DNA of 64,000 nucleotides from Candidatus Omnitrophota bacterium. Its GTDB lineage: Bacteria > Omnitrophota > Gorgyraeia > Duberdicusellales > 4484-171. Each line of letters begins with the position of its first letter. The stretch's first letter is position 1. This document shows, piece after piece, positions 1,849-53,903 of the stretch. The stretch covers positions 32,001-96,000 of the forward strand of contig JAIPGM010000003.1 of assembly GCA_021735655.1 (NCBI GenBank), given 5' to 3'. The position numbers and the translations under genes are program-made. Under the pieces are notes generated by a model. That model was not told where the DNA came from and did no database searches. It worked only from the letters and a program-made list of their open reading frames with translations.

Positions 1849-1887
1849 GTTTACAAATAGGATTTTTGGCTAGAGAAAGGAGTAATA

Positions 1888-26501: not shown

Positions 26502-27386
26502 ATGAAGAAAACACCCGTAGCTATAATTGGTACTGGAAATATTGGTACTGATCTTTTAATTAAGATCCAGCGTTCGTCAATTTTAGAATGTGTTCTTTTT
26601 ACTGGCCGGCGTCTAGATTCACGGGGCATGCAAAGAGCAAGGTTGCTTGGCGTACCCATTTCCGATCAATCAATAAAAGCCATTCAGAGAAATCATAATA
26701 TTTGCGATATAGTCTTTGACGCAACCTCAGCTAAAGCTCATCAATATCACGCACCAATTTTAAAGAAATTAGGTAAGATCGCTATAGACTTAACGCCTTC
26801 AAAAGTTGGCAAGATGTGTATACCGGTTATTAACATGAACCAATGTTTAGATGAAAATAATGTGAATTTGGTTACTTGCGGCGGTCAAGCAGCTATTCCA
26901 ATAGCTCATGCAATTATGAGGGTGCATCCGGAGACCGAATATATAGAAGTTGTAGCAAGTATTGCTTCTAAATCCGCGGGCCTTGGGACTAGAGATAATA
27001 TTGATGAGTTTACTCAGACTACCGGTGATGCTATTTTAAATTTTACCGGAGTTCCTCGGGCAAAGGCAATTATTATTTTAAATCCGGCTGAACCACCAGT
27101 TTTAATGCACAATACCATTTATGCCCAGATTACTAAGCCAAAGATCAAAAAAATGACTGCGGCAATAAATGATATTGTTAACAAGGTTCAAAAATATGTT
27201 CCTGGTTATAAAGTAACTGTGGGTCCAGTGGCCGAGGGCAATCGGGTAACGGTTATGATTGAGGTGGTGGGTTTGGGCGATTTTCTTCCTAAATATTCCG
27301 GCAACTTAGATATTATTACCTGCGCTGCTGTGAATATTGCGGAAAGTTTTGCTCAAAAAAAGATAAGAGGCAAAGTGCCTTTATGA
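26502..27386 (+). CDS. Acetaldehyde dehydrogenase (acylating), DmpF/MhpF family
   Basis: VAIIGTGNIGTDLLIKI, DIVFDATSAKAH and IDLTPSKVGKMCIPVINM with the catalytic Cys align closely with MhpF (VAIIGSGNIGTDLMIKI...DIVFDATSAGAH...IDLTPAAIGPYCVPVVN). Confidence 0.75.
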   Translation: MKKTPVAIIGTGNIGTDLLIKIQRSSILECVLFTGRRLDSRGMQRARLLGVPISDQSIKAIQRNHNICDIVFDATSAKAHQYHAPILKKLGKIAIDLTPSKVGKMCIPVINMNQCLDENNVNLVTCGGQAAIPIAHAIMRVHPETEYIEVVASIASKSAGLGTRDNIDEFTQTTGDAILNFTGVPRAKAIIILNPAEPPVLMHNTIYAQITKPKIKKMTAAINDIVNKVQKYVPGYKVTVGPVAEGNRVTVMIEVVGLGDFLPKYSGNLDIITCAAVNIAESFAQKKIRGKVPL

Positions 27387-28435
27387 AAAAAAGGAAAAAG
27401 ATTTTATTCTTTGATTCTACTTTGCGCGATGGGTCTCATGCAATTAGCCATCAGCTGAAAGCTTCCCAGATTAAGCAATATTGTAAGTATGCAGATGACT
27501 CAGGGTTACATACAATTATTGTCGGCCATGGAAATGGTCTAAGTGCCTCATCTTTGCAGGTAGGGTTGTCGGCTCTTTCTGATACAGAGATGATTGTAAC
27601 TGCTCGCAAGAATCTTAAAGCTACGAAATTGGGAGTTTTTTTGATTCCTGGTTTTGGTACAATTAAGGATGATCTTGCTCCGGCAATTGATCAAGGGGTT
27701 GATTTAGTTTGTGTTGCTTCTCATTGTACCGAGGCTAATGTTACTCGTCAACATATCGAATACGTAAGAAAACGAGGCAAAGCCGCTTATGGGGTTTTAA
27801 TGATGCAGCATATGGCTTCAGCCGAACGTTTATCCGAAGAAGCTCACAAAATGCAAGATTATGGCGCATTGGGTGTTATTTTAATGGATTCTGCCGGAGC
27901 TTCTCATCCGGAGATGGTTTCAGAGCGGGTTGGCCTACTAGTTAAGAATCTTGATTGTCAAGTTGGATTCCATGCTCATAATAATTTAGGTTTAGCGATT
28001 GCTAATTCATACAGTGCAATTAAAGCTGGGGCTACAATTATTGATGGAACAGTTAGGGGTTTTGGGGCTGGGGCCGGGAATTGTCAAATTGAAGTTTTAG
28101 CAGGATTGCTCTATAAAATTGGCGTAAAGACAGGTCTAGATTTATATAAATTGATGGATGTTGGTGATGAAGTAGTAACTAAATTGAGTGAGAAATCTCA
28201 AGGTGTGAGCTCAATTAGCCTAATTAGCGGAATAACTGGGGTTTTTTCGGGTTTTTCTAAACATGTTGAGAAAGCAGCTAAGCGATTTGGCGTTGATCCG
28301 CGAGATATTTTTATGGAGTTAGGAAAAAGAAAAATGGTAGCCGGGCAGGAAGATTATATTGTTGACGTGGCAATGTATTTAGCTCAGAAGAAAACTGGCC
28401 AGAAAGACAGCTATCAGATAGAATCACTTTCTTAA
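27383..28435 (+). CDS. 4-hydroxy-2-oxovalerate aldolase-like (DmpG/MhpE family, DRE-TIM metallolyase)
   Basis: DSTLRDGSHAISHQ (DxxLRDG), FHAHNNLGLAIANSYSAIKAGATIIDGTVRGFGAGAGN and ELGKRKMVAGQEDYIVDVA match the MhpE/DmpG catalytic and communication-domain motifs. Confidence 0.75.
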   Translation: MKKRKKILFFDSTLRDGSHAISHQLKASQIKQYCKYADDSGLHTIIVGHGNGLSASSLQVGLSALSDTEMIVTARKNLKATKLGVFLIPGFGTIKDDLAPAIDQGVDLVCVASHCTEANVTRQHIEYVRKRGKAAYGVLMMQHMASAERLSEEAHKMQDYGALGVILMDSAGASHPEMVSERVGLLVKNLDCQVGFHAHNNLGLAIANSYSAIKAGATIIDGTVRGFGAGAGNCQIEVLAGLLYKIGVKTGLDLYKLMDVGDEVVTKLSEKSQGVSSISLISGITGVFSGFSKHVEKAAKRFGVDPRDIFMELGKRKMVAGQEDYIVDVAMYLAQKKTGQKDSYQIESLS

Positions 28436-28448
28436 TAAGGAGTAGACA

Positions 28449-30230
28449 ATGAGAGTGGCCGATTACATTTTTAATTTTTTAGTCGATAAAGGCGTAAGAA
28501 ATGTTTTTATGGTTTCCGGCGGCCAAGCTATGTTTTTGGTTGATGCTGTTGGACGTCAAAAAGAAATAGAAGTTGTTTGTACACATCATGAACAGGCAGC
28601 TGGGATGGCAGCTGAAGCTTATGGGCGAGTAACTCAAAAATTAGGAGTAGCTTTAGTTACTGCCGGGCCGGGCAGTATGAATATTGTAAATGCGGTAGCC
28701 GGAGGCTGGACAGATTCATCACCAATGATGGTTATTTCCGGCCAATCATCTTTATCATATGTACAGTATCAAGAAGAAACTAATATTCGACAGTATGGAA
28801 TTCAAGGAATTTACATTAAGCCAATAGTTCAGAATATTACTAAGTATTTTGTTACTGTTGATGATCCAGCAAAAATTTTATTTTATCTTCAAAAAGCTTA
28901 TTATTATGCAACTACTGGGCGTCCTGGCCCGGTTTGGATCGATGTTCCGATTGATGTGCAAAAGATGGAGGTTCCCGATCGCTTATTAGAAGAGTTTGAA
29001 CCACCGCTTGAGGCTTATCTTCCCGATGAGCTAACAGATAGTGTTGAGCTGTTATTGACGACAATTTCCAAAGCTAAGCGGCCAATATTTTTAGTTGGCC
29101 AGGGTGTTCGCTTGGGCGGTGCGGTTGATCAGTTTTATCAAGTTCTTGAAAGATTAGCGATTCCGGTATTAACCTCGCGTCTGGGAATAGATTTAATTAA
29201 TAGTGATCATCGTCTTTATGTCGGTCGTCCAGGAATTTATGGTGAGCGAGCAGCTAACTTTGCAATTCAGAATGCTGATGTTATAGTGGCTGTTGGCTCG
29301 CGCTTAGCAACAGCATTAGTTGGCTATGATTCTAAAAACTTTGGTAAACAGGCTTATAAAATAGCTGTTGATATTGATAAAAAAGAGCTAAATAAGATCG
29401 GCGTTGAAATAAATTTGCGAATTCATGCTGATGTAAAAGATTTTTTTAAAGAAATCCAGCGGCAGCTAGTTTCGGTTTCAGTTGGCGATTTTAGTCAATG
29501 GATTAAACAATGTAATGATTGGAAAAAGAACTATCCGGTAGTTTTGCCGTCTTATGAGAAGGAGAAACCAGTCAATTCTTATTATTTTACTGAAAAGCTA
29601 TCTCAGGTTACACCTTCTGAGGTAATGGTTTTGGTTGATACTGGTTCTTGTTTTCATGTGGCTTGTCAGGCTTGGAAGATTAAAACCGGGCAACGTTTTC
29701 TTACTACTGGGGGTCTTTCTTCGATGGGTTATTGGGCTGCAGTTTTGGGGGTTTGCGAGGCCAACAATCGAAAGAATACGATTGTTATTACCGGTGATGG
29801 TAGCTTACAGATGAATTTACAGGAATTAGCAACAATTAAACATTACAATTTTCCGATTAAAGTTATTATTTTCAATAACAACGGTTATCTTTTAATAAGG
29901 CATACACAGAAGAACTACATGAATAGTCGTTTTTGCGGTGAAGGGCCGGATAGCGGTGTTTGGTGTCCGGATTCTTTAAGGATAGCCGAGGCCTATGGGA
30001 TTAAAGGTGTCCGCATAGATTCAGTTAAAGGGCTTAGTGAAAAAATTAAAGAAGTAATTGAATATCCCGGCCCGGTGGTTTGCGATGTAATGACTCCTGA
30101 GTGGCAATTACTTATTCCTCGAGTTTCTTCAGAAAAAAAGCCCGATGGAACATTGGTTTCAAAACCCTATGAAGATATGTACCCGTTTTTGAGTAAAAAA
30201 GAATTAAAACAAAACATGCTTTTTGAATAA
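28449..30230 (+). CDS. Thiamine-diphosphate-dependent enzyme of the acetolactate-synthase-large-subunit family (YerE-like candidate C-C branching enzyme)
   Basis: N-terminal Pyr domain (VFMVSGGQAMFLVDA...THHEQAAGMAAEAYGR). ThDP-binding GDG-X24-NN motif ITGDGSLQMNLQELATIKHYNFPIKVIIFNNNGY. Confidence 0.7.
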   Translation: MRVADYIFNFLVDKGVRNVFMVSGGQAMFLVDAVGRQKEIEVVCTHHEQAAGMAAEAYGRVTQKLGVALVTAGPGSMNIVNAVAGGWTDSSPMMVISGQSSLSYVQYQEETNIRQYGIQGIYIKPIVQNITKYFVTVDDPAKILFYLQKAYYYATTGRPGPVWIDVPIDVQKMEVPDRLLEEFEPPLEAYLPDELTDSVELLLTTISKAKRPIFLVGQGVRLGGAVDQFYQVLERLAIPVLTSRLGIDLINSDHRLYVGRPGIYGERAANFAIQNADVIVAVGSRLATALVGYDSKNFGKQAYKIAVDIDKKELNKIGVEINLRIHADVKDFFKEIQRQLVSVSVGDFSQWIKQCNDWKKNYPVVLPSYEKEKPVNSYYFTEKLSQVTPSEVMVLVDTGSCFHVACQAWKIKTGQRFLTTGGLSSMGYWAAVLGVCEANNRKNTIVITGDGSLQMNLQELATIKHYNFPIKVIIFNNNGYLLIRHTQKNYMNSRFCGEGPDSGVWCPDSLRIAEAYGIKGVRIDSVKGLSEKIKEVIEYPGPVVCDVMTPEWQLLIPRVSSEKKPDGTLVSKPYEDMYPFLSKKELKQNMLFE

Positions 30231-32498: not shown

Positions 32499-33199
32499 AG
32501 CTTTCGGTAATCATAACTTGCTTTAATGAGAAGGCTACTATCCTGGCAGCCATAGAGGAAGCCAGGCAGTTAGATATCGATAAAGAGATAATTGTTATTG
32601 ATAATTGCTCTAGTGATGGCACGAAACAGATTCTAGAAGGGTTAGGCGATAAAACTTTACAGATTGTATTTCAACCTAAGAATTTTGGTGTCGGGCAATC
32701 AGTTAAGCTTGGTGTTGAAATGGCAACCGGCGATTGTTGTTATAGCCCTTGCGCTGATTTAGAGTATAGGATGAATGATGTTTTTAAAATGATTAAAAAA
32801 ATGGAGCAAAATAATTTAGATGCTGTTTTTGGGTCGCGTATTGCTGATAGAAAGAATATTTCAAAATTAGTAATTATTAAAGAAAGACCATACTATGCCG
32901 CAACAATCGTGGCAACGTATCTTATCAATAAGTGGTATGGAAGAAATTTCACGGATATTATTGCTCCGAAGCTTATTAAAGCAGATATTTTTAAAAAACT
33001 AGCTATTAGTTCTAACGGCCAAGCTTTTGAGTTTGAGTTAGTCAGCAGGTTGTGTGAAGTTGGTTGTAGAATAGCTGAAGTGCCTATTTATTATAAGCCT
33101 CGGTCAGCAAAGCAAGGTAAAACTATTAAGCCTTGGGATTTTATTCCTGCTTTGTTAGCTATGATTAAAGTGAGGCTATCTAGAAAAAATAAATCATGA
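32495..33199 (+). CDS. Family 2 glycosyltransferase (DPM1-like)
   Basis: LSVIITCFNEKATILAAIEEARQLDIDKEIIVIDNCSSDGT. Confidence 0.75.
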   Translation: MKLSVIITCFNEKATILAAIEEARQLDIDKEIIVIDNCSSDGTKQILEGLGDKTLQIVFQPKNFGVGQSVKLGVEMATGDCCYSPCADLEYRMNDVFKMIKKMEQNNLDAVFGSRIADRKNISKLVIIKERPYYAATIVATYLINKWYGRNFTDIIAPKLIKADIFKKLAISSNGQAFEFELVSRLCEVGCRIAEVPIYYKPRSAKQGKTIKPWDFIPALLAMIKVRLSRKNKS

Positions 33200-34611
33200 T
33201 TCATTCTTCGAGAAAAATCTATCCTTTTTATATTTTAACTGATGTGTTTTTTATCGTTTTAAGTTTTTTTATACCTTACCTGTTAAAGTATGGCTCTTCG
33301 CAGATATCCTCTAGTTTAAATATTAAACTGCCGAATTTTGAAGAATATGTAGTGATATTTATACTTTGGGGTTTATTTATAATTATTACCTTAAATCGAA
33401 AAGGTTTCTACGCTACTGATCGCTCGCTGAGTATTCCTAAAGAAGCTTTCCGAGTATCAATAAATATTTTATATGTTAGTATTTTTGTGGCCGGATTGAT
33501 ATTTTTTACTAAGTATCAGTTTTTCTCTCGTGAAATATTCTTTAGCAACTTTGTTTTGCTTTGTGTCTTGTTATCTGGATGGAGAGCGCTTAAAAGATTA
33601 GTTTTACGAAAGTTAATATCTCAGGGATTCAAAAATGTAAATGTTTTAATTGTCGGCGCTGGAAAGATTGGTGAGAGTATTGCTGCAGAAATTTACAAAA
33701 ATCCTTATTGGGGATTTAAAATTTCAGGATTTCTTGATGATAGTAAAGTCAAGGCAGTTAGCGACTTACCGATTTTGGGAACCCTGAGTAACTTTATTTC
33801 TGTGGCCAAGAAGTACTTTATTGATGAAGTAATTATATCTATTCCTTCGGAAAGGAAAGCTGTTTCAGAACTAATCAAACAGGCCCAGAAGATGAACTTG
33901 GGTTTAAGAATCATTCCTGATAGTTTTGAAGAACCGCTTCCGGTGGTAGAGATAACTAATCTTGGGTTAATTCCTTTACTTACTTATAAAGAGAGGAAGC
34001 ACCATCCGGCAGAGTTTGCTTTAAAGCGGTTATTTGATATTTTAGTGTCTTTAATTTTGCTGATTTTATTGTTACCGGTTTTTTTAATAGTTTCAATATT
34101 AATAAAAATAGATTCAAAAGGTCCGGTTTTTTATATTCGTAAGCGCTCTGGTTTTAAAGGGAAAATATTTAGTTTTTATAAATTTCGCTCTATGGGTCAA
34201 GACGCCGATAAGCAAAAAGCCGATCTTTTGAGTAAAAATGAATCTAAAGGCAACCTTATTTTTAAGATGAAAAAAGATCCGCGAGTTACTTCGGTAGGTA
34301 AGTTTTTGCGCCGCTATAGCCTAGATGAATTACCTCAAATATTTAATGTTTTAAAGGGTGATATGAGTTTGGTTGGGCCGCGGCCTTTTCCGGTAGAAGA
34401 AAGCGATAAATTTCAGTATGAACATCTCCAGCGGTTGACGGTGCGCCCGGGAATAACCGGTTTAGCCCAGATTAGAGGCCGTTCAGACCTTTCGGTTTAC
34501 CGTTGGATTAAATGGGACCTTTGGTATGTGAACAACTGGTCTTTTCGGCTGGATTTTTTGATTCTTTGGTGGACAATTCCAGTAGTTTTAAAAGGAAGAG
34601 GAGCCTATTAA
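33196..34611 (+). CDS. Undecaprenyl-phosphate hexose-1-phosphate transferase (WbaP/CpsE bacterial sugar transferase family; initiating enzyme)
   Basis: N-terminal TM helices, a central Rossmann-like VLIVGAGKIGE, and the C-terminal catalytic domain KFRSMGQDAD...PRVTSVGKFLRRYSLDELPQIFNVLKGDMSLVGPRP. Confidence 0.8.
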   Translation: MIHSSRKIYPFYILTDVFFIVLSFFIPYLLKYGSSQISSSLNIKLPNFEEYVVIFILWGLFIIITLNRKGFYATDRSLSIPKEAFRVSINILYVSIFVAGLIFFTKYQFFSREIFFSNFVLLCVLLSGWRALKRLVLRKLISQGFKNVNVLIVGAGKIGESIAAEIYKNPYWGFKISGFLDDSKVKAVSDLPILGTLSNFISVAKKYFIDEVIISIPSERKAVSELIKQAQKMNLGLRIIPDSFEEPLPVVEITNLGLIPLLTYKERKHHPAEFALKRLFDILVSLILLILLLPVFLIVSILIKIDSKGPVFYIRKRSGFKGKIFSFYKFRSMGQDADKQKADLLSKNESKGNLIFKMKKDPRVTSVGKFLRRYSLDELPQIFNVLKGDMSLVGPRPFPVEESDKFQYEHLQRLTVRPGITGLAQIRGRSDLSVYRWIKWDLWYVNNWSFRLDFLILWWTIPVVLKGRGAY

Positions 34612-34693: not shown

Positions 34694-35140
34694 ATGCGTC
34701 AGGTGATGAATTTTGTTAAGGCTAATATTGGAGAATTTGGGTTTAGAACTTTAATAAGCTTAATTTTACTAGCTGTCGGATTAGTTTTTGTAGTTTTTGC
34801 AATAAAGAAAATACCGAGCTTAGGGAGAGGTTTTTTTCTTGTTGGACTAACAGCTGTTAGTTTATTATTAGTTTGGCAGATAGAGATAGCTGAGGAAAAA
34901 ATTCATTTATTTGAGTTTGCAGTTTTAGGTTGGCTAGCTTTTAAAGATACTTGGAGTAAAGATAAAAAATCTAAAGGAGTTATTTTAGCTTTAGTTTTTA
35001 CCTTTGCTGTGGGCGTTCTAGATGAAGGATTTCAGGCGGTACTACCCTATCGTTATTTTCAAGGCTGGGATATTTTTTTGAATTGTTTAGGGGGTCTTTG
35101 GGGGGTGCTGTCATTTTTAATTTTCAGAGGCGCAAGATGA
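34694..35140 (+). CDS. VanZ-like small membrane protein
   Basis: Four hydrophobic segments and a GVLDEGFQAVLPYRYFQGWDIFLNCLGGLWG pattern typical of VanZ. Confidence 0.5.
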   Translation: MRQVMNFVKANIGEFGFRTLISLILLAVGLVFVVFAIKKIPSLGRGFFLVGLTAVSLLLVWQIEIAEEKIHLFEFAVLGWLAFKDTWSKDKKSKGVILALVFTFAVGVLDEGFQAVLPYRYFQGWDIFLNCLGGLWGVLSFLIFRGAR

Positions 35141-35979
35141 GAAAGTCTCTATTTTTCTTTTTGTTCACATTTTTCGTTTTTTCTTTTTCTGTTTTCGCTG
35201 ATCAGCAATTAGAAATTCATTTTATTGATGTCGGAGAAGGTAATTCCATTTTTATCGAAACGCCCGGCGGCGAAGTAGTCTTAATTGATGCTGGAAATTT
35301 AATTAGTGGATTTAAGTTGTCGAAATATCTAAAAAAGAATAAAGTTGAAAAAATAGATCATCTTATCTTTACTCATCCTCATCTTGATCATATTGGCGGC
35401 AGTTTTTTCGTAACTCAAGAGTTTCAGATAGAGAATACTTATGATAGCGGAGAGGATTTATTGAATCTGGCTAAAGAGCAAGATGTCTATCGTTGGTATG
35501 CGGATTTAGTAAGAGAGGATAGCAGATATCGAGTTTTAACGGCTGGCGATGGACTTTTAACTGGTGAGGTAAGCTTTAAGGTGCTATGGCCTCGGGATCT
35601 ATCGCTAGGGTCTGATTTTAATATTAATTCTTTAGTGATTATGATAAAATATAAAGATTTTAGATGCCTTTTAATGGCTGATGCGACTATTGAGGCTGAG
35701 CGAGAACTTCTTAAAAGAGGAGAAGTTTTGGGAGCCGATATTCTAAAAGTTGGTCATCACGGTTTTCGTGATGCGTCTTCAGAGCAGTTTTTAGGGGCGG
35801 TATCAGCTGATGTGGCCATAATTAGTGTTAACAAGGATAATCTTCGCGGTTATCCTTCATTAGAGGTTTTAGAGCGCCTAAAAAAAGAAAAAGCCGTAAT
35901 TTATCGAACTGATAAAAGTGGAACTATAGTTATTGAAGTAAATTCTAAAGGGGAATTTTTAGTTAAGGAGGAGTTTTGA
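35137..35979 (+). CDS. Secreted MBL-fold hydrolase (ComEC C-terminal-like metallo-beta-lactamase domain)
   Basis: Signal-peptide-like N-terminus MRKSLFFFLFTFFVFSFSVFA. HFIDVGEGNSIFIETPGGEVVLIDAGN...HPHLDHIGG. The start is set at the ATG at 35137, which overlaps the VanZ stop as ATGA. Confidence 0.6.
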   Translation: MRKSLFFFLFTFFVFSFSVFADQQLEIHFIDVGEGNSIFIETPGGEVVLIDAGNLISGFKLSKYLKKNKVEKIDHLIFTHPHLDHIGGSFFVTQEFQIENTYDSGEDLLNLAKEQDVYRWYADLVREDSRYRVLTAGDGLLTGEVSFKVLWPRDLSLGSDFNINSLVIMIKYKDFRCLLMADATIEAERELLKRGEVLGADILKVGHHGFRDASSEQFLGAVSADVAIISVNKDNLRGYPSLEVLERLKKEKAVIYRTDKSGTIVIEVNSKGEFLVKEEF

Positions 35980-37235
35980 CTGAAAGCCAAAAAATGAAGA
36001 TAGTAGATATAATCGATAGGATTGCTGTTTTTTTCTTTGCAGTTTTAATATTTTTTCTTCCTATTTCTAATGCTGCGATTGAGTCTTGTTTTGGGTTTAT
36101 TTACTTATGCTTCATAACCAGATGTTTTTTTAAGCGGCCGACCCTAAGAGCAATAAGAGAGTTTTTTGCCAATAGGGTAAATTTGTCGTTATTGGTTTTT
36201 TATTGCATTGCCGGAATATCAATGTTAGCCACAGGGTCTTTAATTGGTAAAAGTTTTAATGCTTGGTTCTTTAAATGGGGTGAGGGATTTTTACTATTTT
36301 ATTTTGCTCAAGTTTTTATAAAAAAGGAACATATAAAATATTTATTAGTAGTATTTTTCTGTTCTGCTTTTTTGATTTGCATCAATGGCATATATCAAAA
36401 AATATTTTATTCTGGTTTTATAAGAAATTTCAACCTGTCCATTTTATCAAGTAATTCCGGAATCGCTGCGGTTAGGTCTACTTTTCTTCATTATAATGAT
36501 TTTTCTAGTTATCTAACAGTTATATTTTTTTTGACTTTAGGATTTTTTCTTGACGAAAAAAAAATTATTCGAAGATTATTTATTTTTTGTTTATTCTCGG
36601 TGCTATTAGTTAATTTGTTATTTACACTTTCGCGAGGAGCTTGGCTAGCTTTAATAGTCGTTAGCTTTTTTTCAATAATTATTTTTTTTAGTAAAAGAAG
36701 GATAGCATTATCTTTATTTATTTTGGCCATTCTTGCGGGTACTTTATTCTTAATTCCAGGGTTTAACGGTAGGCTTGTGAGTATTTTCCAAGTTGGCGGT
36801 GATGCTGGTAGATTTTTTATATGGAAAACAGCGATGCTTATGTTTAAGGAATCCCCGTTACTAGGAAGAGGCCCAGGGTTATTCATGGATTATATGAATA
36901 GCTATCAATATCGAGGTATGAGCGGCCTAGGCTTTGCAAGCCCTCTGTATGCCCATAACTGTTACTTGCAAATTCTGGCTGAAATGGGAATATTTGGATT
37001 GTTGTCGTTTTTTTGGTTTTTGGGAGAGTTATTAAAGAAAGGCTATCGTAGGACAAGAAAGAGTGGAGACTTTTTGCTTTTAGGAATATTATTAGCCTTA
37101 GTTGCCTTTTTAATTCATTCTTTTTTTGATACCCAATTCTATTCATTAAAGTTATCGATTTTATTTTGGTTGCTTGTTTCGTTTCTTGGAGTGTGTATTA
37201 CAAAAGAGTCGCCAAAGGTAATTACTAGAAATTAA
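35976..37235 (+). CDS. O-antigen ligase family membrane protein (WaaL/Wzy_C)
   Basis: Polytopic. Signature LSRGAWLALIVVS...YAHNCYLQILAEMGIFGLL. Confidence 0.7.
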   Translation: MTESQKMKIVDIIDRIAVFFFAVLIFFLPISNAAIESCFGFIYLCFITRCFFKRPTLRAIREFFANRVNLSLLVFYCIAGISMLATGSLIGKSFNAWFFKWGEGFLLFYFAQVFIKKEHIKYLLVVFFCSAFLICINGIYQKIFYSGFIRNFNLSILSSNSGIAAVRSTFLHYNDFSSYLTVIFFLTLGFFLDEKKIIRRLFIFCLFSVLLVNLLFTLSRGAWLALIVVSFFSIIIFFSKRRIALSLFILAILAGTLFLIPGFNGRLVSIFQVGGDAGRFFIWKTAMLMFKESPLLGRGPGLFMDYMNSYQYRGMSGLGFASPLYAHNCYLQILAEMGIFGLLSFFWFLGELLKKGYRRTRKSGDFLLLGILLALVAFLIHSFFDTQFYSLKLSILFWLLVSFLGVCITKESPKVITRN

Positions 37236-37239
37236 AGAA

Positions 37240-38598
37240 ATGTTTTTTAAACCGAGAAAGAAAAAAGCATTTGTTATTGGCCTAGATTGTGCTCCGCCGA
37301 GACTTCTCTTTGATAAATTTAAAGATGAGCTGCCTAATTTCAAGATGATGCTAGATAAAGGGGTTCATTGTCCTATGCGTTCAGTGCATCCGCCGATTAC
37401 AATTCCAGCCTGGATGAGCATGTGCTCTGGCTTGGATGTTGGCGAGATTGGCGTTTATGGGTTTAGAACCCGAAAAGATAATTCTTATACAGAATTTGAT
37501 ATCTCTACTTCTAAAAAGTTTTCTCAAATCGATAAGATTTGGGATATTTTAGCAAAATTAAAAAAGAAAAGTGTTCTTGTAGGTGTTCCTCCAAGTTACC
37601 CAACTTATCATATTGATGGAGGTATGATTTCGGGATTTATTTGTCCTGACGCAGCCAGTAATTTTACTTATCCTGAAAGCTTAAAGGGTGAAATTGAAGA
37701 GTTAGTTGGAGAATATAAACTTGATGTGGTGTTTAGAACCGAAGATCGAGATAAGCTAATAAAATCTGCCTGGGAGATGACCGAGAAGAGATTCAAGGTT
37801 ATTGAGTACTTAATAAAAAATAAACAGTGGGATTTTTTTATGTTCGTTGAGATTGGCGTAGACAGAATTCAGCATGCTTTTTGGAAATATTATGATCCGT
37901 CACACCATCTTTATCAACCTGAGCATAAGTATAAAAACGTCATTTTCGATTACTATAAATTTATTGATCAAAAAGTTGGAAAGATTCTTTCAGTTTTGGA
38001 TAAAGATACTACTGTTTTTACAGTATCCGATCACGGGGCAAAGTCAATGAAAGGAGTTTTTTGTCTTAATGAATGGCTTATTGATAAAGGTTATTTAGTG
38101 TTAAATAAATATCCTGATAAGATAGCCAGCTTCAATCAGCTAGATGTTGATTGGCAAAAAACTCGGGCCTGGGGTTGGGGAGGCCATTGTGGAAGGATTT
38201 TTATTAATAAAAAGAACCGCGAAACTCAAGGGTTAGTTAGAGATTCTGAATATGAGAGTTTGCGCGACGGTCTAATTAAGGAGTTAGAAAATGAAACCGA
38301 TCCTTTAGGTAAACCTTGGAATACGAAAGTTTATAAGCCTAAGGATGTCTATAAAGTGTTAAATGGAACCCCTTCGGACCTTGTGGCTTATTTTGATGAC
38401 TTAGCATATAGGGGTGCAGGTACCGTAGGGCATAAAAAGATTTTTCTAGAAGAAAACGATACTGGTCCTGACGATGCCGCACATGATTGGCAAGGTGTAT
38501 TTATTGAGTATAGTCCTTTAAGTAAAAGTGCAGAAGAATTAAACCAAATAAGCATCCTTGATTTCAAAGATAGAGTATTAAAGAGCATGGGAATATGA
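37240..38598 (+). CDS. Alkaline-phosphatase-superfamily enzyme, type I phosphodiesterase/nucleotide pyrophosphatase (NPP, PF01663-like)
   Basis: VIGLDCAPPRLL...VHPPITIPAWMSMCSGLDVGEIGVYGF is comparable to the NPP nucleophile region (PTxTFPNHYxxVTGLYPESHGI). A distal metal-site motif VSDHGA is also present. Confidence 0.55.
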   Translation: MFFKPRKKKAFVIGLDCAPPRLLFDKFKDELPNFKMMLDKGVHCPMRSVHPPITIPAWMSMCSGLDVGEIGVYGFRTRKDNSYTEFDISTSKKFSQIDKIWDILAKLKKKSVLVGVPPSYPTYHIDGGMISGFICPDAASNFTYPESLKGEIEELVGEYKLDVVFRTEDRDKLIKSAWEMTEKRFKVIEYLIKNKQWDFFMFVEIGVDRIQHAFWKYYDPSHHLYQPEHKYKNVIFDYYKFIDQKVGKILSVLDKDTTVFTVSDHGAKSMKGVFCLNEWLIDKGYLVLNKYPDKIASFNQLDVDWQKTRAWGWGGHCGRIFINKKNRETQGLVRDSEYESLRDGLIKELENETDPLGKPWNTKVYKPKDVYKVLNGTPSDLVAYFDDLAYRGAGTVGHKKIFLEENDTGPDDAAHDWQGVFIEYSPLSKSAEELNQISILDFKDRVLKSMGI

Positions 38599-39668
38599 AA
38601 TCATTTTTAATTATTAATCCTTTTGGTATCGGTGATGTTTTGTTTTCTACACCGTTGATAAGGAACATTAAGGAAAACTTGCCTGAAAGTAAGATTTTCT
38701 ACCTTTGCAATCGACGCGCCCAACCGATTCTAGAAAATCACCCCTTAATAGATAAGTGTTTTATCTATGAAAGGGATGAATTCGAAGCCATAAGAAAGAG
38801 ATCAAAGATAAGCTGGTTTAAAAAAATATTAAGTTTTATATCTGAAATAAAAAAAGAGAAAATTGACGTTGCTTTAGACCTGTCTTTAAATCCGCAATTT
38901 GGATTTTTATCTTTTATTGCCGGGATAAAAGAGCGAGTTGGTTATGATTATAAACGGCGGGGTCGATTTTTAACTAAAAAAATTAAGTTTTCCGGCTATA
39001 AGGATAAACATGTCATTGAATATTACCTTGATCTTCTAAAATACATTAATTTAGAACCAATTCATCGAAAAACCGAGCTATTTTTGAGTAAAATAGATAA
39101 AAACAAGTTAGATCTTTGGCAAAGATATAATTTATCTGAAACTAATTTAAATATAGTTATAGCGCCTTGTGGCGGTGCAAGTTGGGGTTTAGAGGCAGGT
39201 TATAAACATTGGAACCTTGAGAAATTTGCTCAGCTAGCCGATAGAAGTATAAGCGAGCTTAAAGCTAGAGTAATCTTAGCCGGCAGTAGACAGGAAAAGG
39301 AAGCCATTGAAAAGGTTGAACGGTTAATGAGCAATAAGCCTCAGAAAGCGATCGGTCTAGAACTTGAAGATTTCCTTGCTATCTTAGCCAAAAGTCAGCT
39401 GGCAGTAGTCAATGACGGTGGAGTATTGCATATGGCCGTAGCCTTGGGGATTAAAACTGTATCTATCTTTGGTCCGGTCAATGAAGTAGTCTATGGGCCT
39501 TACCCGATTGATTCTAGTAAGCATGTTGTGCTTAAGGTTGATATAGGTTGTCGGCCGTGCTATGTAAATTTTCGTTTGCCAGAATGTGTTTATAATAAAA
39601 AATGTTTGAACGATCTCGAAGTCAGTGAAGTTTTTAAAGCGGTTAAGTCTTTAATGGATAAAAAATAG
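38595..39668 (+). CDS. GT9 glycosyltransferase (LPS heptosyltransferase family)
   Basis: IINPFGIGDVLFSTPLIRNIKENLPESKIFYLCN... and a C-terminal GGVLHMAVALGIKTVSIFGP motif. Confidence 0.8.
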   Translation: MKSFLIINPFGIGDVLFSTPLIRNIKENLPESKIFYLCNRRAQPILENHPLIDKCFIYERDEFEAIRKRSKISWFKKILSFISEIKKEKIDVALDLSLNPQFGFLSFIAGIKERVGYDYKRRGRFLTKKIKFSGYKDKHVIEYYLDLLKYINLEPIHRKTELFLSKIDKNKLDLWQRYNLSETNLNIVIAPCGGASWGLEAGYKHWNLEKFAQLADRSISELKARVILAGSRQEKEAIEKVERLMSNKPQKAIGLELEDFLAILAKSQLAVVNDGGVLHMAVALGIKTVSIFGPVNEVVYGPYPIDSSKHVVLKVDIGCRPCYVNFRLPECVYNKKCLNDLEVSEVFKAVKSLMDKK

Positions 39669-39696
39669 TCTGAAGTTAATTTAATAATTTAAGCTA

Positions 39697-41565
39697 ATGG
39701 ATATTTTTATTATTGGAATATTGTGGGCTGCGGCGACTTTTTTTCTTTTTGGGGTCATTGTTGGGATAGGAATAAGTTTTCTAAATAGGTTTAATTTTTC
39801 CTTTATTGGAAACCTATGGTTTTATTTTCTGACCGGCCTTTCCTATATAGCTTATTTAGGCGTAAGAATTATACCCTTGGCTGGTTTGTTGGGATTAATA
39901 TTGGAGGGGTTGCTTGGCATATCAAGATCTGCAGTTATTTTAGTATATCTTGGCTGCACGATTAATCTTCTGACTTACTTTTTTGCCAAATGGTATATTA
40001 CTGGAAAAGAAATACCCTCGACCGTCATAAGTTTCATCCCGGTGGTTCTTTTGGTAATTTTTCGTGAAAGTTTTTCATTGAAAATTATTACTTCTTTGGG
40101 TGCGGTTTGGCTGAGCTTAGTAATTTCAATTAGCTTTCTGGCAGCTTTAATAAGAACTTTTTTTCGTAAGAAAACTACTGGCCAAAAAAGCCAAATTAAA
40201 CCTAATAATTCTTTAAAGCCGGAAGTCAACCAGGTTAATAAAAAAGTAGCTTTTATAGGATTAGATGGTTGCGATTGGCAGTTATTAAAGAGATTTATAG
40301 ATCAAGGTAAATTGCTTACTTTCCGAAGGCTTATTGACGGGGGGGCGTCAGCTAGGCTTAAAACTATTCAGCCGACTCTCTCGCCTTTAATTTGGAACTC
40401 TATACTTACTGGCAAATCGCCTTCCGATCACGGTATCGCCCATTGGTATAAAACTAAATTTCCCCTTCTGCCTCCAGTCGTAGGGGATATTGTCCATCCG
40501 CGCTATTGCCGTTCGAAGCGGATTATTTTATGGTTAATAAAGAAAAATCTGATTAGAAGAATTCCTTTTTCAACCGAGGATAGAGGAGTTAAGGCCATTT
40601 GGAATATATTATCTGATTACGATAAGAGCTCTATTAACGTAGGGTGGATTTTTAGCTGGCCAGCTGAAAAGATTAGGGGGGTTCAGGTAAGTTGGCTTTT
40701 TTATCCTTTTGAGGAGGCAGCTCAAGGTTTTAAAAGATTTAGCTCAAGCAAATTGCCTCAAAGAGTCTATCCGGAAAGTCTATTTGCTGATCTTGAGCGT
40801 TTCATTGTTAGGCCTTCTGATTTAGCCGATGCTGAGTTACGCAGTATGCATTTTACAACCGAAAGTATTAATCCTGAGAAACTTTATGTTGATAAGTTAA
40901 GTCCCTGGGATTATACTAAAGACAAAACTTTTTTACAGGTTAGCAGTTATTTGCTCGACCAAAATAAAGAGTTTGATTTTTTCTCTTTATATCTTTATGG
41001 AATTGACGCCGTTTGTCATAATTACTGGCCATTTTCTAAAGATGCAAGCAACAATCAAAAGCATAAAAACGAGCTACTTTCAGTTAGCGACAGCGAAAAA
41101 TTTAAAAAAGAGGCTGAATCGTTTGATAAATGTATTTTGCGTTATTATGAATATTTAGATAGTGAAATTGCTAAACTTTTAAGTAAGCTTGGTCAAGATT
41201 GCAATATAGTCATAGCTTCTGACCACGGATTTAATTTAGACGGTAGTGAACATGAGAATGCCCCCGATGCGGTGTTGATTGCTTATGGACCTTATATCGC
41301 TAAGGGTAAAAACTTAAGTTCTCTTTCGATATATGATGTTTTGCCTACGGTTTTATGCTTGTTGGGCTTACCATTGGCAAATGATATGCCGGGCAGGGTA
41401 GCTAAGGAGTTGTTTAGCGATCAATTTTTGAATGCTTTTCCTTTTAACTATATTGATAGTTACGAACACACTAGCGATAAGTTAAATGATAGGAGCTTTA
41501 AATTGGATGAGGCTAGCCGCAAAGGTATAGAAGAACGCCTTAGGTCCTTAGGTTATATAGATTAA
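39697..41565 (+). CDS. Membrane-anchored alkaline-phosphatase-superfamily (NPP-type) enzyme
   Basis: About 170 aa of N-terminal TM helices, then VAFIGLDGCDWQLL...PTLSPLIWNSILTGKSPSDHGIAHW and ASDHGF. It is a paralogue of the 37240 gene. Confidence 0.55.
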   Translation: MDIFIIGILWAAATFFLFGVIVGIGISFLNRFNFSFIGNLWFYFLTGLSYIAYLGVRIIPLAGLLGLILEGLLGISRSAVILVYLGCTINLLTYFFAKWYITGKEIPSTVISFIPVVLLVIFRESFSLKIITSLGAVWLSLVISISFLAALIRTFFRKKTTGQKSQIKPNNSLKPEVNQVNKKVAFIGLDGCDWQLLKRFIDQGKLLTFRRLIDGGASARLKTIQPTLSPLIWNSILTGKSPSDHGIAHWYKTKFPLLPPVVGDIVHPRYCRSKRIILWLIKKNLIRRIPFSTEDRGVKAIWNILSDYDKSSINVGWIFSWPAEKIRGVQVSWLFYPFEEAAQGFKRFSSSKLPQRVYPESLFADLERFIVRPSDLADAELRSMHFTTESINPEKLYVDKLSPWDYTKDKTFLQVSSYLLDQNKEFDFFSLYLYGIDAVCHNYWPFSKDASNNQKHKNELLSVSDSEKFKKEAESFDKCILRYYEYLDSEIAKLLSKLGQDCNIVIASDHGFNLDGSEHENAPDAVLIAYGPYIAKGKNLSSLSIYDVLPTVLCLLGLPLANDMPGRVAKELFSDQFLNAFPFNYIDSYEHTSDKLNDRSFKLDEASRKGIEERLRSLGYID

Positions 41566-41566
41566 T

Positions 41567-42436
41567 ATGAAAATAGCTTTAATTTACAATAAGGATAATA
41601 ATTCTACTACTGGTATCTATATCGAGAAGGTATTTCAGGAAAATAGAATCAACTATAGTCATTTCTGGACCAAAGATGCGGATAATATTCCAAAACAGTT
41701 TGATCTTTACTTGCGAATCGATCACGGCGATTACAAATATGATCTTCCTGAGGATCTCCGTCCGGCCGTATTTTATGTTATCGATACCCATTTAAAAAAG
41801 CCTTATAAAAAAATCCGGCGACAAGCAAGACATTACGATGTAGTGTTTTGTTCAGAAAAAACTGGTTTGTTGTCTTTGCGTCGGCAGGTGAGGAATGTTG
41901 ATTTTCAGCGGCTTCCGCTCTCTTGTGATCCCCAGATTCATAAAAAATTAAACTTACCTAAAAAATATGATATCGGCTTTGTTGGTTCCCAAGCCCGTAA
42001 GTTTCCTCGCGGACGCCTGATAGATGTTTTGAGAGAGAAGTACCCGAATAGTTATATCAAGGGGGCAAAGTTTAAACAGATGAGTGAGATCTATAGCTCT
42101 TCTAAAATTGGCTTTAACTATGCTATTGCTAACGGTGTTAATATGCGTAATTTTGAGATAATGTCTTGTGGTTGTTTTTTGTTGACGAATCGGATAAAAG
42201 ATAACGGCTTTTACGAACTATTTGAAGAAGGAAAGCACCTTGTTACCTATAGCAATGAAAAAGAACTTTTGCGATTAATTGAGTATTATTTACATAATGA
42301 TAGCGAGCGAGAGCGTATTGCTCAGGCCGGGTTTGAGCTGGTGACTGAAAGACACACTTATTATCATCGGGTTCAAACCTTGTTTAATTATCTTGCTTTT
42401 AAATGGGGCGGAAAATTTAATCAGTTGAGGATATAG
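41567..42436 (+). CDS. CgeB-like glycosyltransferase domain protein (Glyco_trans_1_2-like)
   Basis: C-terminal FNYAIANGVNMRNFEIMSCGCFLLTNRIKD...HLVTYSNEKELLRLIEYYLHNDSERERIAQAGFELV matches the CgeB-family C-terminal domain. Confidence 0.5.
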   Translation: MKIALIYNKDNNSTTGIYIEKVFQENRINYSHFWTKDADNIPKQFDLYLRIDHGDYKYDLPEDLRPAVFYVIDTHLKKPYKKIRRQARHYDVVFCSEKTGLLSLRRQVRNVDFQRLPLSCDPQIHKKLNLPKKYDIGFVGSQARKFPRGRLIDVLREKYPNSYIKGAKFKQMSEIYSSSKIGFNYAIANGVNMRNFEIMSCGCFLLTNRIKDNGFYELFEEGKHLVTYSNEKELLRLIEYYLHNDSERERIAQAGFELVTERHTYYHRVQTLFNYLAFKWGGKFNQLRI

Positions 42437-51709: not shown

Positions 51710-52807
51710 ATGAAGCTATTTTTTAAATCTTGGCAGAAAAAAAGTAAAAAGAAGAGAATTCTTTTTGCTGGAGTCTGCCATGCTAATTTCATACAGTTTA
51801 GGCCAATTTATGAGATCCTTAAGCAGGATCCAAGAGTTGAAATTTTATTCTCTGGTATGTATCAAAGTAAAGACCGGCCGCGTGAACTCTATAAACCTTT
51901 TAATATAGATAAGAAATTCATCATAAGAGAAAAGTTCGCAAAAACTTTGAGTTTTGACATCTATATTAGCCCAGATTATCACATGATTGACAATAACTAT
52001 TCTTCAACTATTCAGTTTTTTCACACCACTTCTTTTAGAAATTTCTCAGTTAGTGAAGAGGCAAAAAGCTTTGATCAGATTTTTTTAATTGGGCCGTACA
52101 TGAAGCGTAAGTTTATCGAGGCAGGTATTTTTGAAGTTGATGATCCGAGATTAAAAGAAGTAGGCATGCCGCAAACAGATGCTCTTTTAGATAATATCGA
52201 CACTGGTTTGTCTGAGAGACTTGGCTTAGATAAGAGTCTTCCGACTATACTTTACGCTCCAGTCTGGGCGCCGATAGAGAGCTTTCTTGAAGATGTTCAA
52301 ACAACACTTAAAACTTTAACCTCAATTAAGGCTAATCTTCTTCTTAAGTTGCACGATAAATTTTATTATCAACAGGTAAATAAAATTAGATGGCGGGAGT
52401 TTTTGAATTTGGTGCTAAGCGAGAATAAGAATGTACATTTAATAGATGATTTTGATATTATACCTTACATGAAAATTAGTGATTTGCTTGTCAGCGACGT
52501 TAGTGCTGTTGTACATCAGTTTTCTATATTAGATAAGCCAATAGTATGCATGAAGGTAGATGTTGATGAGTTTAAAAAGTTCTGGCCAGGGCTTGATCAT
52601 AAAGCCTATTTAGATCGCGCGGTAATAGAAGCTTCTCAAGGAGAGGCTTTAAAAGAGGCAGTTTTGGGAGAACTTGCTAATCCTGGCAATTTGAGTCAAA
52701 AACGGATAGCCATGAGTAAAGAGTATTTTTATAATATTGGGTTTTCTGCAAAATGCGCAGTTTCGCAAATTTATCAGTCTTTTAATCTAAAGAATACAGA
52801 TGAATAA
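51710..52807 (+). CDS. CDP-glycerol glycerophosphotransferase family protein (TagB/TagF-like)
   Basis: The TILYAPVWAP segment resembles the TagF-family ...LYAPT[WF]R core. It is followed by a GT-B-like C-terminal half. Confidence 0.5.
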   Translation: MKLFFKSWQKKSKKKRILFAGVCHANFIQFRPIYEILKQDPRVEILFSGMYQSKDRPRELYKPFNIDKKFIIREKFAKTLSFDIYISPDYHMIDNNYSSTIQFFHTTSFRNFSVSEEAKSFDQIFLIGPYMKRKFIEAGIFEVDDPRLKEVGMPQTDALLDNIDTGLSERLGLDKSLPTILYAPVWAPIESFLEDVQTTLKTLTSIKANLLLKLHDKFYYQQVNKIRWREFLNLVLSENKNVHLIDDFDIIPYMKISDLLVSDVSAVVHQFSILDKPIVCMKVDVDEFKKFWPGLDHKAYLDRAVIEASQGEALKEAVLGELANPGNLSQKRIAMSKEYFYNIGFSAKCAVSQIYQSFNLKNTDE

Positions 52808-53903
52808 AAAGCCGCTTTCCTCAAAAAATAGTTTCTTAGTTAAACTGAAAGTCAGCCAAGAAATCCTTATGGATGCCGAGCAAATAGCTATAGGTGGGTA
52901 CGCTCCAGTTGATGGTTTTATGGGAAAGGCTGACTTTGAATCAGTTTTGAATAATATGCGCCTTGTAAAAGGTGATGTTTGGACTTTGCCAATAGTGTTA
53001 GATATAAGTAAAAAAGAAGCAGCATCAATTAAAATCGGGGATGAAATATTGCTTGGTGACGGCCAGGATCAGGAAAATTTTCTTTTTTCTGTGGAAGATA
53101 TTTATGAACATGATAAATCTTTGTATTGCGATAAGGTTTATGGTACTAAAGATGTAGCTCATTCAGGAGTAGCAAAGGTGCTTAAGATGGGAGAGGTCCT
53201 TGTAGGGGGCCGGGTTATATCGGTTTTAAATAATTTTGATTTTGATATGCGTAAATTCACCATGACCCCGAAAGAGACAAAAGCCCAGTTTGAAAAAAAT
53301 AATTGGAAAACGGTTGTTGCTTTTCATACCCGGAATGTGGTGCACAGAGCCCATGAGTATCTTCAGCGCTGTGCTATGGAATATGCCGATGGAATTTTGA
53401 TCCATCCTGCGGTTGGCTTTACAAAACCCGGTGATTTCAAGAAAGAGCTTATAATAAAGGGCTATCAAAGTTTAATTGATAACTATTATCCAAAAAATAA
53501 AGCTCTTCTCTCGGCTTTGGGCATAGGCATGAAATTTGCCGGGCCAAGAGAAGCTGTATTTCATGCCTTGGTGCGGAAAAATTATGGTTGTACACATATA
53601 ATTATTGGTAGAGATCATGCTGGCGTAGGCGGATACTATGAGAAGTATGCCGGACATAAGATATTTTCTAGTTTGCCATCTTTGGGCATAACCCCTTTAT
53701 TATTTAAGGGACCGTTTTATTGCAATAAATGTGAAGCTATGGCTACCGAAAGCACCTGCTCGCATGATGAGTCTTATAGGTCAGAAGTCAGCGGAACATT
53801 AGCTCGTAAATTCATAAAGGAAAAGAAAAAGCTCCCTAAGTGGCTGATGCGTCCTGAAATCGCAAACTTGCTTGAAGACCTCGGTGAAAGCGTTTTTTCT
53901 TAA
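52800..53903 (+). CDS. sat: Sulfate adenylyltransferase (ATP sulfurylase)
   Basis: FHTRNVVHRAHEYL (QTRN...HRAH motif) and IIIGRDHAGVGGYY (GRDHAG motif) are diagnostic of ATP sulfurylase. No APS-kinase domain is fused or adjacent. Confidence 0.8.
   Translation: MNKKPLSSKNSFLVKLKVSQEILMDAEQIAIGGYAPVDGFMGKADFESVLNNMRLVKGDVWTLPIVLDISKKEAASIKIGDEILLGDGQDQENFLFSVEDIYEHDKSLYCDKVYGTKDVAHSGVAKVLKMGEVLVGGRVISVLNNFDFDMRKFTMTPKETKAQFEKNNWKTVVAFHTRNVVHRAHEYLQRCAMEYADGILIHPAVGFTKPGDFKKELIIKGYQSLIDNYYPKNKALLSALGIGMKFAGPREAVFHALVRKNYGCTHIIIGRDHAGVGGYYEKYAGHKIFSSLPSLGITPLLFKGPFYCNKCEAMATESTCSHDESYRSEVSGTLARKFIKEKKKLPKWLMRPEIANLLEDLGESVFS

Follow-up and report, generated by a model that had tools for sequence, protein, structure and literature searches.

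We analyzed three adjacent genes in a 64,000-nucleotide stretch of a Candidatus Omnitrophota genome (contig JAIPGM010000003.1, positions 32,001 to 96,000; here called the window), which encode a soluble enzyme (P1), a family 9 glycosyltransferase (GT9), and a membrane-anchored paralog of P1 (P3). A preliminary description of the locus had read P1 and P3 as members of the alkaline phosphatase (AlkP) superfamily of the nucleotide pyrophosphatase/phosphodiesterase (NPP) type that flank a core heptosyltransferase and are candidates to add or remove phospho-substituents on lipopolysaccharide (LPS) outside the cytoplasm. All three genes lie in a co-directional cluster of ∼58 kb for a lipid-linked surface glycan (O-antigen/LPS-like), in which sulfate activation is encoded as well (Table 1). 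The stop of P1 and the start of the GT9 gene overlap by 4 nucleotides (ATGA), the order VanZ-MBL-Wzy_C-P1-GT9-P3 (MBL, metallo-beta-lactamase fold) is a conserved block, and orthologs of the Glyco_trans_1_2 gene come directly, or one gene later, after P3 orthologs. We conclude that the P1/P3 pair is more likely to act inside the cell, in the sulfation of surface sugars, than in the periplasm, in the decoration of LPS with phosphate.

Table 1. Genes and domains of the locus, numbered from the first letter of the window
Feature	Position	Strand	Remarks
P1, soluble 452-aa NPP-fold (PF01663) enzyme	37240..38598	+	codon of predicted nucleophile T54, 37399-37401
GT9-family glycosyltransferase, 357 aa	38595..39668	+	PF01075
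P3, 622 aa	39697..41565	+	membrane domain plus NPP-fold catalytic domain
P3 membrane domain, residues 1-155	39697..40161	+	without Pfam family; N terminus without Lys or Arg
P3 basic linker (RTFFRKKTTGQKSQIK...) plus NPP-fold catalytic domain	40162..41565	+	predicted nucleophile S229, codon 40381-40383
Wzy_C (O-antigen ligase/polymerase-like) membrane protein	35976..37235	+	ends 4 nt upstream of P1
VanZ-like and metallo-beta-lactamase-fold genes	34694..35979	+	upstream of Wzy_C; order kept in locus L093 (MBL in L004 too)
Bac_transf (polyprenyl-phosphate sugar-1-phosphate transferase) with CoA_binding_3	33196..34611	+	initiating enzyme of a lipid-linked glycan pathway
Glyco_trans_1_2 glycosyltransferase	41567..42436	+	starts 1 nt past P3
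ATP-sulfurylase (sulfate adenylyltransferase)	52800..53903	+	above curated cut-offs
TagF-like (PF04464) glycerophosphotransferase-family gene	51710..52807	+	8-nt overlap with the ATP-sulfurylase start

Both proteins that flank the GT9 gene have the NPP-type core that the preliminary description gave them. Against the Pfam profile PF01663 (gathering threshold, 23), P1 scored 161.5 bits (E = 5.5e-47) and P3 scored 87.1 bits (E = 2.3e-24, residues 184 to 512); the sulfatase-type profile PF00884 gave 17.1 bits for P1, under its cut-off of 25, and no match for P3. The two proteins are true but distant paralogs (25% identity, E = 2e-19; hhalign, 99.9%). Each carries a complete set of nucleophile and metal ligands, with D16, T54, D208, H212, D264, H265, and H415 of P1 invariant in 56 P1 relatives and D190, S229, D437, H441, D509, H510, and H519 of P3 invariant in 12 orthologs that are 46 to 100% identical. 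In a family profile alignment, the PPITIPAW segment of P1 aligns with PSLTFPNH of Xanthomonas NPP, and T54 falls on the catalytic T90. The Xanthomonas enzyme was the sole PDB entry that the P1 family profile reached, and weakly, and PDB sequence searches with P1 and with P3 returned no matches. The best structural matches of both proteins were nucleotide pyrophosphatases/phosphodiesterases, and the fold is nearer to the NPP branch than to the sulfatase, alkaline phosphatase, or EptA branches; Foldseek with the P3 model returned generic AlkP matches only. The unrelated branches that the preliminary description had named as dangers to its reading did not claim either protein, as PglZ (PF08665) matched neither and phosphonoacetate hydrolase PhnA (TIGR02335) matched P3 only, at 22.8 bits versus a cut-off of 407.55. 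No Pfam or NCBIfam sulfotransferase profile matched P1 or P3, and neither has the 5′-phosphosulfate-binding (5′-PSB) and 3′-phosphate-binding (3′-PB) motifs. P1 and P3 are outside the EptA/LtaS, PglZ, PhnA, and canonical sulfotransferase families.

P1 also stands apart from the characterized enzymes of its fold. Identity to the NPPs (Xanthomonas NPP and ENPP1/4/6/7) and to PafA/PhoK is only 14 to 23%. All these known enzymes are secreted or are ecto-enzymes, but P1 is cytoplasmic, with no signal peptide and no hydrophobic segment, and it carries a strongly conserved insertion of ∼130 residues (∼residues 270 to 400). Several Arg and Trp residues are invariant in this insertion, which contains the motifs WGWGG and NDTGPDD and the residues R319, R327, and R391. 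In a short hidden Markov model alignment, NPP Asn111 aligns with the invariant F75 of P1, and R76 and R78 are nearby. The insertion is absent from P3, so the substrate pockets of P1 and P3 must differ.

The relatives of P1 place it in sulfate activation. They number more than 4,700, with ∼52% identity even to proteins of Asgard archaea, Thermoplasmata, and Bathyarchaeia, and this conservation across domains of life is incompatible with an LPS-specific role. In one Thermoplasmata and one Odinarchaeota genome, the P1 homolog, which we call X in these operons, lies between the genes for ATP-sulfurylase (sat) and adenosine 5′-phosphosulfate (APS) kinase (cysC). We sampled 80 species-representative loci from many archaeal and bacterial phyla whose X proteins are 46 to 66% identical to P1 over residues ∼6 to 452. 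ATP-sulfurylase was present in 65 of these loci and APS kinase in 63, with at least one of the two in 74. The commonest order was ATP-sulfurylase-X-APS kinase (37 loci), followed by ATP-sulfurylase-X (10 loci) and ATP-sulfurylase-DHH-X-APS kinase (7 loci); X occurred with APS kinase but no ATP-sulfurylase in 9 loci and without either in only 6. The distance between X and ATP-sulfurylase was 400 nucleotides or less in 48 of the 80. The PF01663 clade nearest to P3 served as the control; among 80 of its loci, none had ATP-sulfurylase, one had APS kinase, and none had CysQ, and on these counts we rejected a general link between PF01663 and sulfate. The similarity of P1 to the X clade is full length, and in the window P1 is not itself adjacent to ATP-sulfurylase or APS kinase. 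P1 is almost certainly the ortholog of X and very probably acts in sulfate activation or transfer, not in phospho-decoration. The phospho-substituent role put forward earlier had missed this strongest signal and the ATP-sulfurylase gene in the window.

The other genes around X account for most steps of sulfate activation. The 150 nearest neighbors are enriched in enzymes of sugar-nucleotide metabolism (18 epimerase/dehydratases and 5 UDP-glucose dehydrogenases) and in additional PF01663 paralogs (6), and neither a canonical sulfotransferase nor a reductase of 3′-phosphoadenosine 5′-phosphosulfate (PAPS) is among their 25 most frequent families; a search of the X-operon neighbors with a 5′-PSB regular expression, a crude test, found none. 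TauE, for sulfate uptake, occurs in some X loci. Phosphatases of the DHH or CysQ type, which act on 3′-phosphoadenosine 5′-phosphate (PAP), adjoin X, so PAP is produced there. We considered PAP phosphatase as the main role of P1 and rejected it, since CysQ or DHH covers PAP disposal in the same operons; the DHH gene of the archaeal ATP-sulfurylase cluster encodes an experimentally proven pAp phosphatase (PMC8268124; PMC10322725). The cluster with its PF01663 gene has been seen in Thermococcales, Archaeoglobales, and others (Jin et al. 2021, PMC8268124). The PYCH_17550-type gene of that study has the same ATP-sulfurylase-[DHH]-X-APS kinase arrangement as P1 relatives, including those of Archaeoglobi and Thermoplasmatota, an orthology drawn from synteny, and the P1 clade comprises soluble PF01663 proteins of ∼450 to 465 aa. 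That study identified neither a sulfotransferase nor a sulfite reductase in P. yayanosii, and it offered degradation of pyrophosphate (PPi) by PYCH_17550 as a speculation (PMC8268124). Unlike the gene of that cluster, P1 is detached from ATP-sulfurylase by 14 kb, sits in a bacterial glycan locus with Wzy_C on one side and GT9 on the other, and has a membrane-anchored paralog. The clade had been noticed but not characterized, and P1 adds a member to it in a new genomic setting. Literature searches for an AlkP-fold sulfotransferase returned nothing relevant, and COG3379 returned one irrelevant paper. In Haloferax volcanii, genetic evidence shows that a dolichol-phosphate-linked hexose is not sulfated without HVO_2046 (Agl7) (PMC3892788), and we do not use this gene as support here.

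The loci closest to the window connect the two settings. In L093 (70% identity to P1), the order is Bac_transf-VanZ-MBL-Wzy_C-P1-GT9-P3-GT2-GT1_2, as in the window, and L004 has Wzy_C-DUF2061-P1-GT9 with P3 four genes on. A locus from another member of the Omnitrophota (L092), which holds the closest Omnitrophota ortholog of P1 (69% identity), has ATP-sulfurylase, APS kinase, DUF2061, P1, a CysQ-type phosphatase, and ManC in this order and, further on, GT9, a methyltransferase, PagL, a carbamoyltransferase, and a second PF01663 gene, which shows an ancestral-type module joined to LPS-like genes. L094 has the order DUF2061-P1-CysQ-PF01663 paralog. Orthologs of the GT9 gene adjoin P1-type genes in L004 and L093 and lie near one in L092. 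The PagL-type gene of L092 (16644-17216), which encodes a lipid A deacylase/outer membrane beta-barrel protein, is between GT9 and the second PF01663 gene, downstream of sat-cysC-P1-cysQ, and is the clearest hint at a link between the Omnitrophota module and LPS. The surface-glycan, LPS-like setting proposed at the outset agrees with this gene and with Wzy_C, GT9, and Bac_transf in the window. A 99-aa DUF2061 membrane protein is encoded just upstream of the P1-type gene in Omnitrophota/Aureabacteria (L004:1610-1909, L092:9491-9790, and L094:218-517) and is absent from the window.

P3 is a lineage-specific paralog tethered to the inner membrane, and at ∼25% identity to P1-type proteins it is not a member of the X clade. 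Its N-terminal 155 residues are hydrophobic, and the AlphaFold model has helices at residues 2 to 30, 36 to 71, 77 to 102, 105 to 121, and 128 to 155 (five, possibly six), which bears out the fusion to a polytopic membrane domain that had been described. Full-length P3 orthologs are few (12 clusters and one further metagenome match) and always lie in undecaprenyl phosphate-type glycan loci with Bac_transf, Wzy_C, GT2/GT4/GT9, and Glyco_trans_1_2. The likeness to EptA that the preliminary description drew holds for the overall design. EptA, MCR-1, LtaS, and PbgA join a polytopic N-terminal domain to a periplasmic sulfatase-type AlkP domain, and P3 shares with them an N-terminal helical bundle, an AlkP domain, a Ser/Thr nucleophile, and an association with envelope glycolipids. 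However, Pfam gave no EptA_B_N match for P3, its N-terminal polytopic domain showed no homology to EptA_B_N or to the LtaS transmembrane (TM) domain, its core is not of the sulfatase type, and its predicted orientation is the opposite one.

We called the topology of P3 from the distribution of Lys and Arg residues (K+R) using the positive-inside rule, by which the K/R-rich side is cytoplasmic. The N terminus has no K or R in all 12 P3 orthologs, and a mean of 7.4 K+R lies in the 31 residues past the last helix. With the five-helix AlphaFold2 model, we counted 11.3 K+R on the catalytic side versus 1.9 on the opposite side, or 3.9 versus 1.9 without the linker. A six-helix model gave 10.4 versus 3.3, and in this model the short loops alone showed no bias (3.0 versus 3.3). 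By the positive-inside rule, this charge distribution places the catalytic domain of P3 on the cytoplasmic side, which we regard as probable on these residue counts. EptA and LtaS have the N-in/catalytic-out orientation, opposite to the one predicted for P3. As a control, we examined an independent lineage with five TM helices and PF01663 (L097:362-2314, plus strand), which is 30% identical to the P3 catalytic domain. Its counts (16 versus 5, with 5 K/R at the N terminus and 9 in the loop at residues 135 to 166) indicate an EptA-like N-in/catalytic-out orientation, so charge counting is able to return either answer. P3 is a new architectural variant, an NPP-type core on a polytopic anchor that probably faces inward. 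The extracytoplasmic catalytic domain of the preliminary description is therefore doubtful, given the lack of a signal peptide in P1 and the inward charge pattern of P3. A predicted cytoplasmic location had been named in that description among the results that would speak against it; the evidence for a cytoplasmic P3 domain is moderate.

The nearest relatives of P3 are mostly cytoplasmic. An N-terminal hydrophobic segment is absent in 52 of 65, which are signal-less PF01663-TPR proteins of 700 to 780 aa. Immediately downstream in 24 of 66 P3-like loci, many with a 4-nucleotide overlap, is a ∼190-aa gene whose product has a PAPS-binding motif (SGLPRSGTS) and scores above the PF13469 and PF00685 gathering thresholds. 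This coupling to a sulfotransferase is a second, independent association of the AlkP superclade with sulfation. The soil-metagenome loci with PF01663-TPR genes coupled in this way to a minimal sulfotransferase-family gene (L105 to L173; e.g., L114:9908-12765, L140:9938-12708, and L112:1450-8211) are bordered by genes for ∼260-aa secreted proteins in tandem arrays with as many as six copies. These secreted proteins share the motif LNLYALAASAAGVG, and the arrangement may be a protein- or glycan-sulfation system.

The ATP-sulfurylase gene of the window lies 14 kb downstream of P1 in the same co-directional cluster. Searches with tblastn found no APS kinase, DHH, or TauE gene in the window, and none of its scanned open reading frames (ORFs) has a sulfotransferase domain. 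Directly after ATP-sulfurylase is a 180-aa ORF (53927-54469, plus strand) with an AAGGAG ribosome-binding site and faint pyruvate-kinase/HpcH-barrel similarity only; it had no relatives in the fetched loci, and an exact-match look-up was empty. Its position is where APS kinase or X sits in other genomes. The TagF-like gene noted in the preliminary description was confirmed at the family level (PF04464), and its overlap with ATP-sulfurylase (51710-53903) suggests that the two are translationally coupled. A small, weak Glyphos_transf fragment lies upstream of ATP-sulfurylase in the Odinarchaeota loci L010 and L011. The glycosyltransferase between P1 and P3 is a member of GT9 (PF01075, 80.3 bits), but a core heptosyltransferase was not established. 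The protein scored below every NCBIfam heptosyltransferase equivalog cut-off (WaaC/WaaF/WaaQ), the best being heptosyltransferase II at 117.2 versus 134.6 bits, and Pfam found no ADP-heptose synthesis domain, neither SIS (GmhA) nor PfkB-type kinase (HldE), in the window ORFs scanned. A second GT9 gene lies at 55994-56938.

From these results, we infer that P1 and P3 work at the cytoplasmic face and serve the sulfation of the glycan built by this locus. PAPS is cytoplasmic, and the bimetal sites of the AlkP superfamily carry out sulfuryl as well as phosphoryl transfer. In the X operons, uptake (TauE), activation, phosphorylation, and PAP recycling are all assigned, and X is the sole unassigned enzyme, which favors a role for X in consuming PAPS by way of a sulfo-Thr intermediate. 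In the mechanism that we favor, sulfate would be activated by the ATP-sulfurylase of the locus, with APS kinase encoded elsewhere. P1 and/or P3, with a bimetal site and the Thr54 or Ser229 nucleophile, would accept the sulfuryl group of PAPS (or APS), forming a covalent sulfo-enzyme, and would then transfer it at the cytoplasmic face to a hydroxyl group on a nucleotide-sugar or on an undecaprenyl-linked or core glycan. Sulfation would precede flipping and Wzy_C-type ligation or polymerization, and P3 would act on a membrane-embedded intermediate. We hold this explanation as a whole, with its sulfuryl-transfer mechanism, only tentatively. P1 itself is a candidate sulfotransferase from its sequence and operon context, an assignment somewhat short of probable, and P3 may or may not take part in sulfation, with the balance slightly toward the latter. 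The likeness of P1 and P3 to the canonical PAPS sulfotransferases (PF00685/PF13469), which include the LPS sulfotransferase LpsS of Sinorhizobium meliloti, lies in the proposed role only, sulfation of surface glycan or LPS from cytoplasmic PAPS; the folds are unrelated.

In its broadest form, the proposal would make the P1/X clade, perhaps with paralogs such as P3, a new class of PAPS- or APS-dependent sulfotransferases on the alkaline phosphatase/NPP fold that work via a covalent sulfo-Thr/Ser at the bimetal site. This class would be the consumer missing in PAPS-making archaea (Asgard, Bathyarchaeia, Thermococcales, and Archaeoglobi) and bacteria, and P3 would be its membrane-tethered, inward-facing version, sulfating lipid-linked glycan intermediates. 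We consider this broadest form rather doubtful.

Several observations weigh against sulfuryl transfer by these proteins. X is ∼50% identical between domains of life, which suits a small universal substrate over an acceptor-specific transferase, and the window has no APS kinase. No ATP-sulfurylase or APS kinase lies within 8 kb in the P3 ortholog loci, so the tie of P3 to sulfation stays indirect, and without the conserved insertion P3 has a pocket different from that of P1. The topology of P3 comes from K+R counting only, and some P3 relatives have lipoprotein (lipobox) signals or an EptA-like topology. In the P3-like TPR clade, a canonical sulfotransferase is present, and the AlkP domain there need not transfer sulfate. 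A sulfotransferase gene adjoins the cluster in some archaea (Jin et al., PMC8268124). Biochemical data for any member of the P1/P3 family were not found in the searchable literature, and the sole published idea for X is PPi hydrolysis.

That idea leads to the alternative that survives best, in which P1 is a hydrolase helper of PAPS synthesis that removes PPi, pulling the unfavorable ATP-sulfurylase reaction, or removes another adenine-nucleotide by-product, and the sulfotransferases are elsewhere or are divergent paralogs such as P3. We regard it as a real possibility but not a probable one. It agrees with the speculation published for PYCH_17550 (PMC8268124), with the tight spacing of X and ATP-sulfurylase, and with the 10 loci that have ATP-sulfurylase and X without APS kinase. 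Such strong conservation across domains agrees with a small, invariant substrate, and the divergent PF01663 paralogs that recur beside the module could be the real transferases. However, X also occurs with APS kinase in the nine loci without ATP-sulfurylase, and P1 here is far from ATP-sulfurylase and coupled to Wzy_C and GT9. DHH or CysQ already provides PAP phosphatase in these operons, an insertion of ∼130 residues with invariant Trp and Arg is hardly needed by a simple pyrophosphatase (PPase), and the operon would then have no PAPS consumer. Housekeeping PPases are near-universal, which also counts against a dedicated helper.

A second alternative keeps the earlier reading. P3 would be an EptA/LtaS-like periplasmic transferase with an NPP core, which would take phosphoethanolamine, phosphoglycerol, or phosphocholine off a lipid donor and attach it to the LPS core or to lipid A, and P1 would add or remove a related phospho-substituent. 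The N-terminal helical bundle and AlkP domain are as in EptA and PbgA, the neighbors include GT9 and Wzy_C, joined in L092 by PagL, an extracytoplasmic location is predicted for some relatives (those with lipobox signals and L097), and the short loops of the six-helix P3 model are unbiased. The eukaryotic glycosylphosphatidylinositol (GPI) ethanolamine-phosphate transferases (PIG-N/Mcd4, PIG-O, and GPI7), which act on a lipid-linked glycan, also combine a PF01663-type AlkP domain with a polytopic membrane domain. In these enzymes, the catalytic domain is luminal and at the N terminus, the C-terminal part has many helices, and a PigN domain is present; Pfam did not detect PigN in P3. Set against this alternative are the cytoplasmic location of P1 and its place in the sat-X-cysC clade, the N terminus without positive charge and the strongly basic linker in all P3 orthologs, the lack of any EptA_B_N or PF00884 match, and the cytoplasmic location of most P3-like relatives, and we consider it unlikely. 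A role other than sulfotransferase, hydrolytic helper, or periplasmic phospho-transfer is quite unlikely. That P1 and P3 are generic nucleotide or nucleotide-sugar pyrophosphatases/phosphodiesterases, trimming precursor pools or cleaving lipid-pyrophosphate intermediates after the sulfate tie was lost on P1 relocation, would agree with their best structural matches, the separation of P1 from ATP-sulfurylase, and the missing APS kinase but is very unlikely, as P1 is 66 to 70% identical to orthologs still inside the sat/cysC/cysQ module, which argues that function was retained, ATP-sulfurylase is in the same cluster, and the invariant Phe at the NPP Asn111 position and the conserved Arg nearby are unlike classical NPPs.

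The whole window is one co-directional block of ∼60 genes with a GC content of ∼36%, and tRNA and Rfam scans of it gave no matches. From position 1 to 58290, ∼55 consecutive genes on the plus strand have intergenic gaps near zero, which makes an unusually large single-orientation glycan supercluster. It contains five DegT aminotransferases, two B12/radical-SAM enzymes, two Wzy_C-like proteins, a PMT_2/ArnT-like GT-C, and Leptospira-type "surface carbohydrate biosynthesis" proteins. The supercluster runs up to xseA (56947), beyond which lie pnp, ftsK, and rodZ. The genes at 26502-30230 (plus strand), for an acylating acetaldehyde dehydrogenase, an HMGL/DmpG-type aldolase, and a three-domain thiamine pyrophosphate enzyme, adjoin CDP/NDP-hexose genes (23991-25753) and look like a branched-chain (yersiniose-like) sugar pathway. 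At 263-3087 (plus strand), a trio of HisF-like, HisH-like, and WbuX (N-acetyl sugar amidotransferase, 342 bits) genes is a signature of acetamidino-sugar synthesis. In the sugar-modification part of the cluster, a 346-aa kinase-like protein with a Walker A motif (GQPGCGKT; 6394-7434, plus strand) matched no Pfam or NCBIfam family and had no detectable similarity to APS kinase.

In many uncultured archaea and bacteria, sat and cysC occur without a PAPS reductase or recognizable sulfotransferase, which raises the question of how these organisms use activated sulfate. One uncharacterized NPP-fold gene travels with sat and cysC in ∼90% of the sampled species-level loci, in both domains of life, and in Omnitrophota it is wired into an O-antigen/LPS-like assembly block beside a membrane-anchored paralog. 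The P3-type membrane form should not be annotated by analogy with EptA, and its likely topology and chemistry are corrected here. The vague label "alkaline phosphatase family protein," carried by thousands of proteins, can be replaced by a specific hypothesis, sulfuryl transfer versus hydrolysis of PPi or PAP. If P1 is a PPase, it would be a dedicated driver of PAPS synthesis. If it is a transferase, it would be a new catalytic scaffold for sulfation, and sulfated envelope glycans would be predicted in Omnitrophota and in many archaea.

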